52,802 nucleotides of DNA from Patescibacteria group bacterium (GTDB lineage: Bacteria > Patescibacteriota > Patescibacteriia > Patescibacteriales > UBA12465), in contig JBAYIC010000009.1 of NCBI GenBank assembly GCA_041665845.1, positions 1 to 52,802 on the forward strand, given 5' to 3'. The notes under the pieces are model-generated. The model saw nothing but the letters and a program-made list of their open reading frames with translations. It did no database searches and was not told the DNA's origin. This document shows positions 1-5,214 of the stretch, one piece after another; position 1 is the stretch's first letter; each line of letters starts with the position of its first letter. The position numbers and the translations under genes were made by a program.

Positions 1-817
1 GAATTCCATATTTTTTAGCTGCTGCCTGTAAAATTGAACGGGATAAAAAGATTAATTCATAAAAAACATCCGTTCTCCTAGTGCGTAAATAAACTAATTC
101 TCTTGCTTCGCGATAGAGTGTGCGTAAAGGTTTTGGTATCTCAGGATAAATATGCTGTTCATGCTTTTTAAGATTAGAGCGGTATTTCGTTAATTCCTTA
201 AGACTATAAGGACTAGCAAAGCCATCACGCGCCCTCATCCAACCATATTTTTTTCTAATACTTTTTAAATCAACCCCCGCCCTCATTTCTTCTTCCATTA
301 ATTCAAGAGCATTCTTTTTTTCCGGATAAGAAGCGTCGCCAATATATTTATCTAAATCCGTCTTAATATATTTTACGGTTTTTGTTTTTAAATCATGCCA
401 AATAACATGTTCAAGCATATGCGCCGACCAAATAAAAGCCGATGACTGCTGCAAAATATTTTCTAAAATAATTAATTTATTTTTTAAACTCATTTTCTTA
501 TCAGCGCCAAGACGAGCAACTTCTAGCTTGTTTGCTTGATAGAAAACTTCAAGTTTTTCTGATATTTCCTCTATTTTATGTTCTTTCAACCAGTTTCTAA
601 GCTGCGGAACGGTTTTATTAAACACTTCATCGGACCAATACCAAGTACTATCTGTAAAAATAAATGAATCCATTTCCCAGCCACTAAGACCAATTTTCTT
701 AAAAGTTTTTTTGGAAGAAGAACCATGGAATAAAGACATTATAAAAGCATAAAAAGGACGCCTAAGCCAAGGCTCCCATTTATACTTTAAAACTTTTTCT
801 ATAATTTTTTTATCCAT
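1..817 (-). CDS. Fourth paralogue of the PEP-utilizer-swivel family, N-terminal 272 aa only (runs off the window edge); not in the ORF track
   Basis: Manual translation from ATG at 817, 1 nt after the upstream stop at 819: MDKKIIEKVLKYKWEPWLRRPFYAFIMSLF...KKYGWMRARDG...LVYLRTRRTDVFYEL...KKYGI, open to the edge. It shares RPF, KY(G/A)W and Y-x-R/K-x-x-R motifs with the three complete neighbours. The swivel domain would lie outside the window. Confidence 0.8.
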   Translation of the reverse strand, partial: MDKKIIEKVLKYKWEPWLRRPFYAFIMSLFHGSSSKKTFKKIGLSGWEMDSFIFTDSTWYWSDEVFNKTVPQLRNWLKEHKIEEISEKLEVFYQANKLEVARLGADKKMSLKNKLIILENILQQSSAFIWSAHMLEHVIWHDLKTKTVKYIKTDLDKYIGDASYPEKKNALELMEEEMRAGVDLKSIRKKYGWMRARDGFASPYSLKELTKYRSNLKKHEQHIYPEIPKPLRTLYREARELVYLRTRRTDVFYELIFLSRSILQAAAKKYGI

Positions 818-818
818 A

Positions 819-2234
819 TTATTTTACTCTTTTAATGATTCCTTTATCCGCGTCAACCTCAACCATATCGCCGTTGTGCAAAACTTTGGTAGCGATTTTT
901 GCCCCCACAACGCAGGGTTTTTTTAACTCCCGCGAAACAATTGCCGCATGAGAGGTTATTCCTCCTTCATTAGTAATAATTGCGGCGGCTTTTTTCATAA
1001 CCATCATAAAAGAGGGTGAGGTATAATGAGCAACTAAAATTTCTCCGGTTTTAAATTTCTTAAAATCCTGCGCCCCCATTATTAATCTTACTCTTCCTCT
1101 CGCTAAACCGGAAGAAACGGCAACACCCTTAATTTCTTTAACGGCTGATTCGACCTCTAAGTATTTAGCAATTACTTTTTTAACTAATTCGGGTTTATAA
1201 ATGAAAAACTCGTGTACCCCCTTTTTACTCGCCGGTGAAAAAATAATAGTTTTACGATTAATTCTTTTTTCTAGTAGTTCCTGGGTGGGCAAAATACCTT
1301 TCTCTAAGTAAGCAATTATTTCTTGGTTAGTAAGATTAACCGCATCATAATAAGAAAACCAGGGGAACTCTTTTTGAACCAATAAAGCTAACCTCTTGAA
1401 GAAACTCCGCATTGCGGTTAATCCTTGATTATATATTTCTATTCTATCGGTTCTAATATTAACATACTCATGAATAATTTCCGCCATTAATTTATCTTTT
1501 CCGTCTAACTTTTTAATAGCTTCTTGATAATGATGCTTATTTTCAGAAATAGTTGATCTATAACTTAAAATCGCTTTCTTTAAATCTCTTTTTGTTATTT
1601 CTTTTTTTCTTTTATTAACATCTGATTTATCCATTAACTTTTCTTTCAACGAATATTCATTTAACCAAGCGTATTTTTTAACTAATTTATCATAATTAAT
1701 TTTTTCACCCATAGCTAATAATTCAAGCTGAAACTTTTGATAACCAAACAGCTGAGTTGGGCCAGAAATACCTGCAATTAAATCTACGTTTTTAACCTTA
1801 CTGGCGAAACGATGATATAAATCATCTTCAATTATATATGGAGAAATAAAATAGACGCTAAAAGCAGTTAAATTCTTATCCCAAGACTTGTAACAAGTCA
1901 AAAGACTCTTACGGTCTAATTTTACATGTTTAGCTTTACGACTTGATTCTAATAATTTTTTTCCTAAAGTTTTATAGTTTGCTAAATGTTTTTTAAAGTT
2001 ATCACCTTGCAATAATTTATTAATAAAACTTTTATATTTTTTATGAGCATTTTTTTCGATATAAATACTATCCTTCCCATCTGGAAGAGGGACGCATAAA
2101 GATGAAATACCTAAAGTATGACGGCAAAAAGTACCAACAATGCCAACTCTTTGTACGGTAAAGGGTCGAGAAGCCATTACTTCATAAGCATCTTTGTTTG
2201 TTATAATATATTTTGCTATTTCACTTTCAGTCAT
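819..2234 (-). CDS. PEP-utilizing enzyme mobile (phospho-His swivel) domain protein with a large helical N-terminal domain; no ATP-grasp domain
   Basis: C-terminal ~105 aa: KGVAVSSGLARGRV...TNEGGITSHAAIVSRELKKPCVVG...VEVDADKG (canonical His motif). The N-terminal ~365 aa has no PPDK/PEP-synthase nucleotide-binding motifs. Confidence 0.88.
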   Translation of the reverse strand: MTESEIAKYIITNKDAYEVMASRPFTVQRVGIVGTFCRHTLGISSLCVPLPDGKDSIYIEKNAHKKYKSFINKLLQGDNFKKHLANYKTLGKKLLESSRKAKHVKLDRKSLLTCYKSWDKNLTAFSVYFISPYIIEDDLYHRFASKVKNVDLIAGISGPTQLFGYQKFQLELLAMGEKINYDKLVKKYAWLNEYSLKEKLMDKSDVNKRKKEITKRDLKKAILSYRSTISENKHHYQEAIKKLDGKDKLMAEIIHEYVNIRTDRIEIYNQGLTAMRSFFKRLALLVQKEFPWFSYYDAVNLTNQEIIAYLEKGILPTQELLEKRINRKTIIFSPASKKGVHEFFIYKPELVKKVIAKYLEVESAVKEIKGVAVSSGLARGRVRLIMGAQDFKKFKTGEILVAHYTSPSFMMVMKKAAAIITNEGGITSHAAIVSRELKKPCVVGAKIATKVLHNGDMVEVDADKGIIKRVK

Positions 2235-3687: not shown

Positions 3688-3690
3688 AAG

Positions 3691-5214
3691 TTAATTTTTT
3701 GTTCTTTCGATTATTCTTATTATCCCTCGATTTGCATCTACCTCTACTAAATCACCATCGTGCAAAACTTTAGTAGCAATTTTTGTGCCGATAATACAAG
3801 GGGTTTTGAGCTCACGGGCAACAATCGCCGCATGGCAAGTTACTCCGCCCGTATTAGTAATAATCGCCGCTGCCTTATTCATAGCCGGAACTAAAGACGG
3901 ATTAGTAGAAAAACTTACTAAAATATCACCTTCTTGAAACTTTTCTAAATCACTCTTTGCATTAACTATCTTCACTATCCCCTTAATCTTTCCCGGATAA
4001 GCTGTATTTCCTTTTAATTCCTTATCGCCTGAAATTTTTGTATCAATGGGAAAAAATAATTCTTTAAATTTCATTGCCTTAGCGCCCGTACAAAAAGTCT
4101 CCTTTCCATTTACCTGCAATACGGCTAAACAATTATAACGTTTATTTAATTCTTCGACTGATGGAACGTTTCCCTTCTTTAACCAAAGCTCTATTTCATC
4201 AGGAAAAAGATATTTTACTAAAGTCGCCGTGCAATACAAACGACGGGCGGCTTCTTGAAACCATTTCTGCATCGCAAAGTTCAACCTATAAATCTGCACC
4301 TCCTTGCGAAGCTCCTTGATATAAGAAAAATCTTTTAAGGCGTTAATCTGCTTGATTAAATCTCTACTAAGACCGCTCATTATTTTAGCTTGCCACTTTT
4401 TAAGAATTACTTTTTCATTTTTCTTGGACAATAATTCTTTCTCGGGATTTTTTTTATGCCTTTTTACTAAATCGTAGTAATAATCTGCCTTAGCCGCTTG
4501 ACCATCATAATAAAATTGCATCCAACCAAATTTTTTAGCTAGATTATTTAAATCTTTAATTATTTCTTTAGGCAAGTTATCTATTTTTTTACTTTTTACA
4601 AATATCTTCCAAATATCCGAGCTCTTTTTCCAATTCACTAAACAATTTAAAACAGCTATCTGTTCTTTATATAAATAAGTATCTCCTAGGGATGTTGTTA
4701 ATTTGCTAAAAATTGTTTCTAAATCATTTTTATCCCTTAAATATTTTTCTAATGATATTTTTACGCGATCTGATAATTTATCATCACTCATATCCATATA
4801 AGGCGGTATTCCTGCTAAACGTCCACAATCAACCCAAAGTTTGTGAAACTCATCATACCAAGCAAACAATTTCTTATTACTCAATCCGCGTAAATCAGCG
4901 ACCAATAATTTATTAGCGAAAATATTTATTTTACGAAAAGAGGCTAACTGATTAGAAACGATACGACTGACAAATTTATTATCATTATTCATTTGCTTCT
5001 CAAAATAATTTCCACTTCCCGCAAATCTTTCATGAATCGGGCCCCAAGTTACTTTTTCTTTTTCAAAAACATAGAGATTATCAATATAAATTCCACGACC
5101 GGTTAATTCATAATTAATAGGTCCAAAAATTTCATTCCAAAAAATCCAAGGATGAAGCGGAACATTATAATCTTCAACTAAAACTGTATATTTTGGTTTA
5201 ACCATATTATTCAA
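3691..5214 (-). CDS. PEP-utilizing enzyme mobile-domain protein, paralogue 3
   Basis: TNTGGVTCHAAIVARELKTPCIIG...VEVDANRG at the C-terminus; 3-nt gap to the next gene. Confidence 0.88.
   Translation of the reverse strand: MNNMVKPKYTVLVEDYNVPLHPWIFWNEIFGPINYELTGRGIYIDNLYVFEKEKVTWGPIHERFAGSGNYFEKQMNNDNKFVSRIVSNQLASFRKINIFANKLLVADLRGLSNKKLFAWYDEFHKLWVDCGRLAGIPPYMDMSDDKLSDRVKISLEKYLRDKNDLETIFSKLTTSLGDTYLYKEQIAVLNCLVNWKKSSDIWKIFVKSKKIDNLPKEIIKDLNNLAKKFGWMQFYYDGQAAKADYYYDLVKRHKKNPEKELLSKKNEKVILKKWQAKIMSGLSRDLIKQINALKDFSYIKELRKEVQIYRLNFAMQKWFQEAARRLYCTATLVKYLFPDEIELWLKKGNVPSVEELNKRYNCLAVLQVNGKETFCTGAKAMKFKELFFPIDTKISGDKELKGNTAYPGKIKGIVKIVNAKSDLEKFQEGDILVSFSTNPSLVPAMNKAAAIITNTGGVTCHAAIVARELKTPCIIGTKIATKVLHDGDLVEVDANRGIIRIIERTKN

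Follow-up and report, generated by a model that had tools for sequence, protein, structure and literature searches.

The first 5.2 kb of JBAYIC010000009.1, a contig of 52,802 nucleotides from a Patescibacteria group bacterium, carry four abutting open reading frames (ORFs), all on the minus strand, here called P1 to P4. In our assessment the four genes probably (with a probability of about two in three) encode specificity subunits of a split, ATP-dependent dikinase of the rifampin phosphotransferase (RPH) type, whose ATP-grasp subunit would be encoded only once, in the same gene array. The window, that is the whole stretch that was analysed, is the complete contig C9 of a 1.04-Mb, 18-contig, 97%-complete Patescibacteria genome (G000); its relatives in the databases carry the name Patescibacteria, and the sequencing runs holding the genome are groundwater metagenomes. 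An earlier reading of this DNA made from the letters alone (the sequence-only reading) had proposed that the proteins are RPH minus its ATP-grasp, charged in trans by a shared donor. Structural models now support the first part, predicting in the two modelled proteins, P1 and P2, an RPH-like helical substrate-binding domain and a phosphohistidine swivel domain without an ATP-grasp. For the second part the support is genomic: a lone stand-alone ATP-grasp gene of the PPDK_N type in the same array, its co-occurrence with the modules in related genomes, and natural fusions between the two suggest that charging occurs in trans.

Three of the genes are complete in the window: P1 (471 aa, 819..2234), P2 (486 aa, 2227..3687) and P3 (507 aa, 3691..5214), each on the minus strand and each predicted to combine an RPH-type substrate-binding domain with a swivel. 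The length of P3 is counted from a TTG start; from the next ATG, as in the databases, it is 504 aa. P4 is present as the N-terminal 272 aa (2..817, minus) of a 430-aa helical-domain plus swivel protein, its ORF running off the window start and its remainder lying at C7:66699-67190. The gaps between P4, P1, P2 and P3, in that order, are 1 nt, an 8-nt overlap and 3 nt. The C-terminal swivel domain (PF00391) was matched in P1 at 840-1055 (E 2.9e-27), in P2 at 2260-2475 (E 3.3e-28) and in P3 at 3724-3939 (E 1.1e-25), with the catalytic histidine intact in all three (His429 within 942-956, His440 within 2362-2376 and His461 within 3826-3840); the swivel His motifs of the three complete proteins are GGITSHAAIVSRE, GGLTCHAAIVARE and GGVTCHAAIVARE. 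The ORFs and these Pfam matches bear out the earlier description of four abutting paralogues, three of them complete with an intact swivel. "At least four", as the sequence-only reading had it, is right for the window and understates the family, which has seven members in the array and 14 in the genome; likewise, the fourth gene, said to be incomplete, is truncated in the window by the contig end and encodes a swivel once the contig is joined to C7. The N-terminal 365-400 aa of P1-P3 have no covering Pfam or NCBIfam family. The short motifs reported in the N-domains (KYAW, KFSW, KFGW and KYGW; IRTDR, IQDKRK, IKELRK and LRTRR) were all found in place.

AlphaFold2 models were obtained for P2 (pLDDT 89, pTM 0.86) and P1 (pLDDT 90, pTM 0.85). 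When these were compared with the PDB using Foldseek, the six best matches of both were the six entries of RPH-Lm (5FBS, 5FBT, 5FBU and 5HV1-3; Stogios et al. 2016, PMC4844700), with E values from 2e-13 to 3e-10, and RPH-Lm was the only whole-length structural match. The query-normalised TM scores were 0.37-0.58 over some 550-590 alignment columns, reaching 0.58 for P2 (best E 2e-13) and 0.55 for P1 (best E 4e-12). Entries of pyruvate phosphate dikinase (PPDK), of phosphoenolpyruvate (PEP) synthase-related proteins, of pyruvate kinase and of Enzyme I matched the swivel only, with TM scores of about 0.2. A cryptic ATP-grasp or PEP-binding fold could also have been hidden in the N-termini; in the Foldseek comparison of the P1 and P2 models with the PDB neither an ATP-grasp nor a PEP-binding TIM barrel was found there.

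The models cover P1 and P2, and P3 is linked to P2 by hhalign. With the N-domains alone, hhalign gave 95% for P2-P3 (E 3e-8, 302 columns), 60% for P1-P3 and 33% for P2-P1, and BLAST between the paralogous N-domains was marginal (E 0.5 to 1e-5). Homology of the P1 N-domain being marginal by sequence, structure prediction was needed to place this protein. Database orthologues were found for P2 (17 full-length, 45-72% identical, with some of 60-70% in other metagenomes), for P1 (13, 33-76%) and for P3 (12 full-length). All of these are swivel-only proteins equal in length to their counterparts here and come from Patescibacteria-type sources, so that each paralogue represents a lineage that is old and conserved; full-length orthologues persist for each at identities as low as 31-38%.

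When 1.84 billion representative sequences were searched by phmmer with only the N-domain of P2, 247 clusters came back, nearly all 440-515 aa long; a small number were fusions of 682-1149 aa. In an alignment of 114 of the family's sequences, W210, Y215, D285, K288, E323 and R340 (P2 numbering) were at least 90% conserved; with W210, Y215, D285 and K288 so conserved, the short motifs are not chance resemblances. The profile of the 114 members aligned with residues 630-866 of RPH-Lm (E 2.5e-33), catalytic His825 included, and laid its consensus q-D-e-R-K on R666-E667-Y-P-K670. In RPH-Lm the second phosphotransfer cannot proceed without Arg666 and Glu667, and Lys670 takes part in the hydrogen-bond network (PMC4844700). 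The counterpart of this segment in P2 is I-Q284-D285-K-R287-K288 (2824..2841, minus), with the Asp on E667 and the Lys on K670. In P1, I-R261-T-D-R264-I (1440..1457, minus) falls by hhalign onto Q284-K288 of P2, and thence onto the Arg666/Glu667/Lys670 segment; R261, T262 and R264 are invariant among P1 orthologues. The P3 motif IKELRK lies at 4303-4320 (minus). P2 (Q-D-K-R-K) and P3 (K-E-L-R-K) keep the acid and the Lys and have Gln or Lys in place of Arg666; in P1 (R-T-D-R-I) and P4 (R-T-R-R-T) the Arg is kept, Thr stands where RPH has Glu667, and Lys670 is lacking. An Arg is found at +3 from the Arg666 position in all four proteins, and it may substitute for Arg666.

Seen by itself the window holds no phosphate donor for these proteins, and this donor-less look is an assembly artefact: the left end of C9 joins the right end of contig C7. 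The two ends have 16 nt in common (GAATTCCATATTTTTT), and joining them at this overlap yields an in-frame, 430-aa P4 with a complete swivel supplied by C7 (GGLTCHAAIIARE). Both contig ends are bridged, with zero mismatches, by a 411-nt contig from another groundwater metagenome (run X2), whose bases 1-200 equal C7:66991-67190 and whose bases 185-411 equal positions 1-227 of the window. The last two bases of C7 (67191-67192, TG) disagree with the bridging contig and with C9; since the bridging contig shows other bases, they are an assembly-end error. The assembly break was probably caused by a KKYGI-coding motif, common to the paralogues, at the C7 end. Intact orthologues of P4, 67-69% identical, occur in the congeners G002 and G005 (a closed genome of 977 kb), exactly between the orthologues of C7:65237-66697 and those of the window genes, within a fully collinear array. 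A third congener, G004, shows the same flanks on a single contig, with metK and the nucleotidyltransferase gene on one side, and PPDK_N and the 'MFDYLQQF' protein on the other.

The joined array extends over about 16 kb of the minus strand and comprises a nucleotidyltransferase gene, seven swivel modules, interspersed phosphatase genes and a single stand-alone PPDK_N. Its first five genes, all minus, are the nucleotidyltransferase (137 aa), P3 (507 aa), P2 (486 aa), P1 (471 aa) and P4 (430 aa); directly after P4 comes a fifth module of 486 aa (C7:65237-66697, minus). After the phosphatase genes, two longer modules of 626 and 617 aa (C7:57728-61559, minus) adjoin the last gene of the array, the stand-alone PPDK_N (312 aa, C7:56758-57696, minus; PPDK_N E 2.5e-99). 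The sequence-only reading had called for a search of the rest of the genome for such a partner; one does exist, and it lies not elsewhere in the genome but about 9.5 kb beyond the window edge, downstream in the same array. Besides this gene and PEP synthase (PpsA), a domain search of the genome found no PPDK_N or PEP-binding domain.

Genome-wide, 15 PF00391 domains stand against two PPDK_N ATP-grasp domains, one in the stand-alone protein and one in a true, 803-aa PpsA encoded on contig C3. This PpsA also contains the genome's sole PEP-utilizers_C domain (PF02896). The other 14 swivels belong to swivel-only proteins of 355-626 aa, seven in the array and seven dispersed, and all 14 (the joined P4 included) keep the catalytic His. 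The swivel domains of the modules are on average 51% identical to one another and 38% identical to that of PpsA; in global alignments of the N-terminal regions the identity is about 25%, close to noise. Such a difference between pocket (~25%) and swivel (~51%) would fit a single loader shared by modules of many different substrate specificities. Of the seven dispersed modules, five stand beside NUDIX (twice), HD (one clear, one below the cut-off) or HIT hydrolases; those next to phosphohydrolase-type genes are at C4:15638-17156, C1:155538-157492, C7:14573-17057 and C11:5782-8182. These neighbours hint, loosely, at nucleotide or phospho-metabolite chemistry. The swivel copy at C11:5782-8182 is also flanked by an aldo-keto reductase and an ASCH/DUF3850 protein.

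The association between modules and free ATP-grasp was analysed in 41 genomes of the genus and order, our own included. At least two PPDK_N domains were present in 18 of 18 genomes with more than one swivel, versus 3 of the 23 others (Fisher p = 7.5e-9, phylogeny-uncorrected). The free PPDK_N never exceeds one per array while modules range from 2 to 14. It directly adjoins long modules at one array end in six genomes (G002, G005, G006, G007, G009 and G011), and in G021 it directly follows a 459-aa module. Moreover, covalent fusions exist in the same genus: a 1130-aa protein in G008 (ORF 1371-4763; locus G008:C3:1500-8500) joins PPDK_N to two module/swivel units, and a 706-aa protein in G017 joins it to one. 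The PPDK_N part of these fusions is 57-58% identical to the free PPDK_N versus 43% for PpsA. Between congeners the free ATP-grasp shows the same degree of conservation as metK (87-93% versus 91-95% identity); the modules are 67-90% identical or replaced. The genes following the G008 fusion encode a patatin-like phospholipase and an enzyme of the PLD family, which may place the fused version in a lipid-related context. In three other genomes the regions matching the free PPDK_N contain one to three in-frame TAA or TAG stops (G032:C3:89679-90608, G026:C7:13866-14771 and G003:C90:8556-9449), which could reflect pseudogenes, sequencing errors or matches extending past gene ends.

How such a system might work can be drawn by analogy from the biochemistry of RPH and of HpeHI, a split RPH homologue of Rhodococcus that requires both of its subunits as well as the swivel His (Dexter et al. 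2025, PMC12167813). The free ATP-grasp would bind ATP and dock transiently with the swivel of any module. The swivel His would then attack the beta-phosphate and the gamma-phosphate would be hydrolysed, giving AMP, Pi and phosphohistidine, after which the swivel would swing back to the helical domain of its own chain. Here the phosphate would be positioned by the conserved [R/Q/K]-[D/E/T]-x-R-[K] segment for transfer to a hydroxyl of a module-specific small molecule. The subunits of HpeHI do not associate stably, and the reaction rate depends linearly on the amount of HpeI (PMC12167813); a shared loader acting by collision is thus mechanistically plausible.

Several observations weigh against a split dikinase with one shared ATP-grasp. 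Congener G004 (94% complete) has an intact free PPDK_N, 74% identical to ours, and no swivel-only gene was detected anywhere in its genome; the orphan ATP-grasp may have another role, or the modules may have been lost recently. At this locus (C21:3000-9000) are found metK, the nucleotidyltransferase, a 209-aa homologue of the 211-aa array gene that lacks its RHG motif, and PPDK_N. Seven of the 14 modules of our genome are unlinked to the ATP-grasp gene, the co-occurrence statistics ignore phylogeny, the RPH catalytic motif is kept only in part across P1-P4, and none of the RNA runs holds the locus. Without its ATP-grasp partner HpeH can, if slowly, pass phosphate from 4-phosphoacetophenone to acetovanillone (PMC12167813). 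Finally, the neighbourhood of the array gives only soft hints as to the substrates.

These hints begin with the head of the array. The 137-aa nucleotidyltransferase (5217..5630, minus; PF01467, E 3.8e-12), 2 nt upstream of P3, belongs to the cytidylyltransferase family, and its best PDB match is 3glv (E 5e-21). By position, an orthologue lies beside or within a swivel array in some eight genomes of the genus (G002, G003, G005, G006, G007, G009, G011 and G021); inspection of the loci confirmed the adjacency in G002, G005 and G004, in the last of which it is kept at a locus free of modules. In G021 a 125-aa ORF stands between the nucleotidyltransferase and the first module. The substrates of cytidylyltransferase-family enzymes are phosphorylated, and a phospho-compound made by the modules may therefore be what the nucleotidyltransferase activates. 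Upstream of the array are metK, ahcY and a pfkB kinase gene. A GC-rich hairpin after metK (5749..5762, listed on the minus strand, terminator-like on both strands as a consensus match only) sits within the 171-nt spacer between metK and the nucleotidyltransferase gene and is likely to be the upstream boundary of the array transcription unit; a promoter scan gave no excess over shuffled sequences. Directly upstream of the pfkB-ahcY-metK genes, at 9210-21622 of the window (minus), are four consecutive ORFs of 316, 879, 284 and 2645 aa with no Pfam match at E <= 1e-4. No aromatic-catabolism, ring-cleavage, carboxylase, resistance, efflux or defence genes were seen near the array.

Within the array, the module series is interrupted at C7:61813-65218 by four genes, which follow the fifth module in the order His_Phos-like (315 aa), HAD hydrolase (209 aa), His_Phos-like (300 aa) and, on the opposite strand, a 211-aa gene. 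The HAD hydrolase is clear; the three others, of 211-315 aa, have an N-terminal RHG, RHS or RHQ, match Pfam His_Phos_1 below the cut-off (E 0.002-0.006) and show one weak dPGM match in NCBIfam, and the 211-aa protein had no match in the PDB. Our guess is that these three are phosphatases, of the products or of phosphohistidine (SixA-like). In the 626-aa module some 90 aa at the N-terminus form an additional winged-helix domain (PADLOC PDC-M05A, E 7e-10, with weak ArsR/SmtB and HTH_5 matches); for the 617-aa module, which is 24% identical to it from residue 1 and had no helix-turn-helix match, this domain is assumed only. With the winged helix its module may act as a regulator of the array that responds to a ligand or to phosphorylation; alternatively, the domain may serve to recognise nucleic acid as a substrate. 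One could speculate that, with a nucleotidyltransferase and phosphatases at hand, at least some of the products are phosphorylated metabolites, to be activated further or recycled. One specific idea, that the nucleotidyltransferase is an FAD synthase like the archaeal RibL-type enzyme and a module makes FMN, was dropped: a canonical flavokinase is encoded on C1 and nothing links the two. The archaeal CTP-dependent riboflavin kinase was not found in the genome.

The number of modules varies at what is otherwise a fixed locus. Between conserved flanks there are 8 modules in G002, 7 in our genome, 6 in G005, at least 5 in G006, 3 in G007, 2 in G021 and none in G004. Slots are replaced by paralogues only 30-37% identical, as in G002, where a 37%-identical paralogue occupies the slot of P2; G005 has no orthologues of P1-P3 at the locus and two other modules in their place. 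In an even sample of 150 Patescibacteria genomes, PF00391 was absent from 52 and most others had one or two copies, while nine genomes, scattered over eight families, had at least five (maximum 12). With 15, our genome was top among the 191 genomes examined. There is a broader possibility, which we put forward tentatively and consider rather doubtful in its full form: that the locus is a hub-and-spoke platform, where one conserved ATP-grasp charges a variable cassette of RPH-type modules (0-8 at the locus, more dispersed), each phosphorylating a different scavenged or hostile molecule, with the nucleotidyltransferase turning products into NDP-activated forms and the phosphatases resetting or reversing the reaction. 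If true, such a platform would replace many conventional kinases by one engine and exchangeable modules in genomes of about 1 Mb.

The same mechanism could serve defence, the modules being a bank of RPH-like kinases that inactivate antibiotics or toxins of hosts or competitors. The best-studied structural relative is indeed an antibiotic-resistance kinase, the modules turn over between congeners as described above, and their pockets diverge fast while the catalytic parts are kept. We nevertheless regard a dedicated defence role as unlikely: the nucleotidyltransferase at the head and the flanking S-adenosylmethionine-cycle and kinase genes look metabolic, resistance and efflux genes are missing from the surroundings, and every type of module forms an old orthologue group that has been conserved. 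PADLOC gave no match for the modules as defence genes, nor for the ATP-grasp, nucleotidyltransferase or phosphatase-like genes, and an anti-phage defence system was rejected on this ground. As to what the split dikinase does for the cell, trapping or activating scavenged compounds, or inactivating toxic ones, is a speculative suggestion.

Could the modules be charged without the free ATP-grasp? They might take phosphate from PEP, with PpsA acting in trans, or from other phospho-metabolites, working as ATP-independent phospho-exchange or phosphomutase-like shuttles. The transfer catalysed by HpeH alone, the seven unlinked modules and G004, where PPDK_N without modules indicates that there is no strict interdependence, would all sit well with this. 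The HpeH-only activity is, however, very slow (2.7 nmol/min/mg; PMC12167813), and the sole PEP-binding domain of the genome lies within PpsA, beside PpsA's own swivel, from which the module swivels are more distant than from each other. The modules are tied to PPDK_N by their strong co-occurrence, by a conserved gene order and by covalent fusion, and we judge charging without the free ATP-grasp improbable.

We think it similarly improbable that the modules are phosphocarriers for signalling or regulation, that is, a relay to proteins resembling the phosphotransferase system (PTS) or two-component systems, or a form of DNA-binding control. This idea draws on the winged helix of the modules next to the ATP-grasp (the one detected and the one assumed), on the swivel domain that PTS Enzyme I also has, and on the possible, if weak, phosphohistidine-phosphatase-like genes of the array. 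The four window proteins, on the other hand, have no DNA-binding domain in Pfam or NCBIfam, their N-domains have a small-molecule-binding fold in which the catalytic segment is kept in part, and no HPr, EI-N or EIIA-type partner was seen, though none was searched for. The characterised relatives RPH, HpeHI, CreHI and PpsAB are, moreover, small-molecule kinases (PMC12167813). That the paralogues are relics of a PEP synthase fragment, duplicated and now decaying or without function, as might be imagined from the label 'phosphoenolpyruvate synthase/pyruvate phosphate dikinase' that some sources give the modules and from the one congener (G004) without any, is very improbable, given that all ORFs are intact with their catalytic His, full-length orthologues persist at the lowest identities, the N-domain residues are conserved and the confident folds are unlike any PpsA domain except the swivel.

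With 14 genes, about 2% of the coding capacity of a 1.04-Mb genome is spent on one enzyme architecture, which suggests that it is important to an ultra-small, host-dependent lifestyle. If one ATP-grasp serves many modules, the array would be a case of modular kinase building and a source of new small-molecule kinase specificities, and it could, if true, explain how bacteria of the candidate phyla radiation (CPR) trap, activate or neutralise host-derived compounds. Database annotations of the modules as 'PEP synthase' or 'PEP-utilizing enzyme' are corrected by the present analysis. The sequence-only reading had warned that the former name would be wrong, rightly so: against the PEP synthase models TIGR01418 and NF005057 the modules score 107-121 bits, with cut-offs of 598-740, and over the swivel part only.

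Compared with the known enzymes, what the modules have in common with PpsA and PPDK is the swivel PF00391 and the ATP-grasp type of the partner; they have neither the PF02896 TIM barrel nor an ATP-grasp in the chain. With the models for PEP synthase, RPH, PigC/RedH and Enzyme I, matches are confined to the last 100-170 residues of the modules and score far below the cut-offs. PTS Enzyme I resembles the modules over the swivel stretch only, in models and structures alike, and PF02896 does not occur outside PpsA. RPH-Lm itself is a single chain of 867 aa with an N-terminal ATP-grasp, whereas the modules lack an ATP-grasp and are 13-16% identical to it in sequence; they reach 41-64 bits with the NCBIfam RPH models NF041857 and NF000283 (cut-offs 999 and 1700) and have no PPDK_N in the chain.

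The closest parallels in mechanism are two-component small-molecule dikinases, whose H-type subunits the modules resemble most: HpeHI, CreHI of Corynebacterium and the phenylphosphate synthase PpsAB of Thauera/Aromatoleum (PMC12167813). As in these, one subunit here combines an RPH-like substrate-binding domain with a C-terminal swivel bearing T-[CS]-H (HpeH is likened by its description), a separate PPDK_N-type ATP-grasp subunit of about 310-340 aa is encoded in the same cluster, and the expected chemistry would convert ATP to AMP, Pi and phospho-substrate via phosphohistidine. The modules P1-P4 and the fifth are shorter, at 430-507 aa, than the 71-kDa HpeH. While HpeHI, CreHI and PpsAB are 1:1 pairs in aromatic-catabolism clusters, here one ATP-grasp gene faces seven modules in the array and 14 in the genome, as it does in similar fashion in the congeners; no aromatic-degradation genes are near, nucleotidyltransferase and phosphatase genes belong to the array, and the number of modules ranges from 0 to 8 among congeners. 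We found no paper joining Patescibacteria or CPR with swivel, PEP-utilizing or PF00391 proteins, in a search that omits most subscription journals; a resistance-gene census merely counts 'rph' matches in CPR genomes (PMC8651080). The one-to-many layout, an array of variable module number at one fixed locus, the accompanying nucleotidyltransferase and phosphatase genes and the occurrence in ultra-small bacteria thus appear to be undescribed in the searchable literature. RPH-like dikinases split into two subunits (HpeHI, CreHI, PpsAB) have already been characterised (PMC12167813), and it is only the one-to-many layout that appears to be new.

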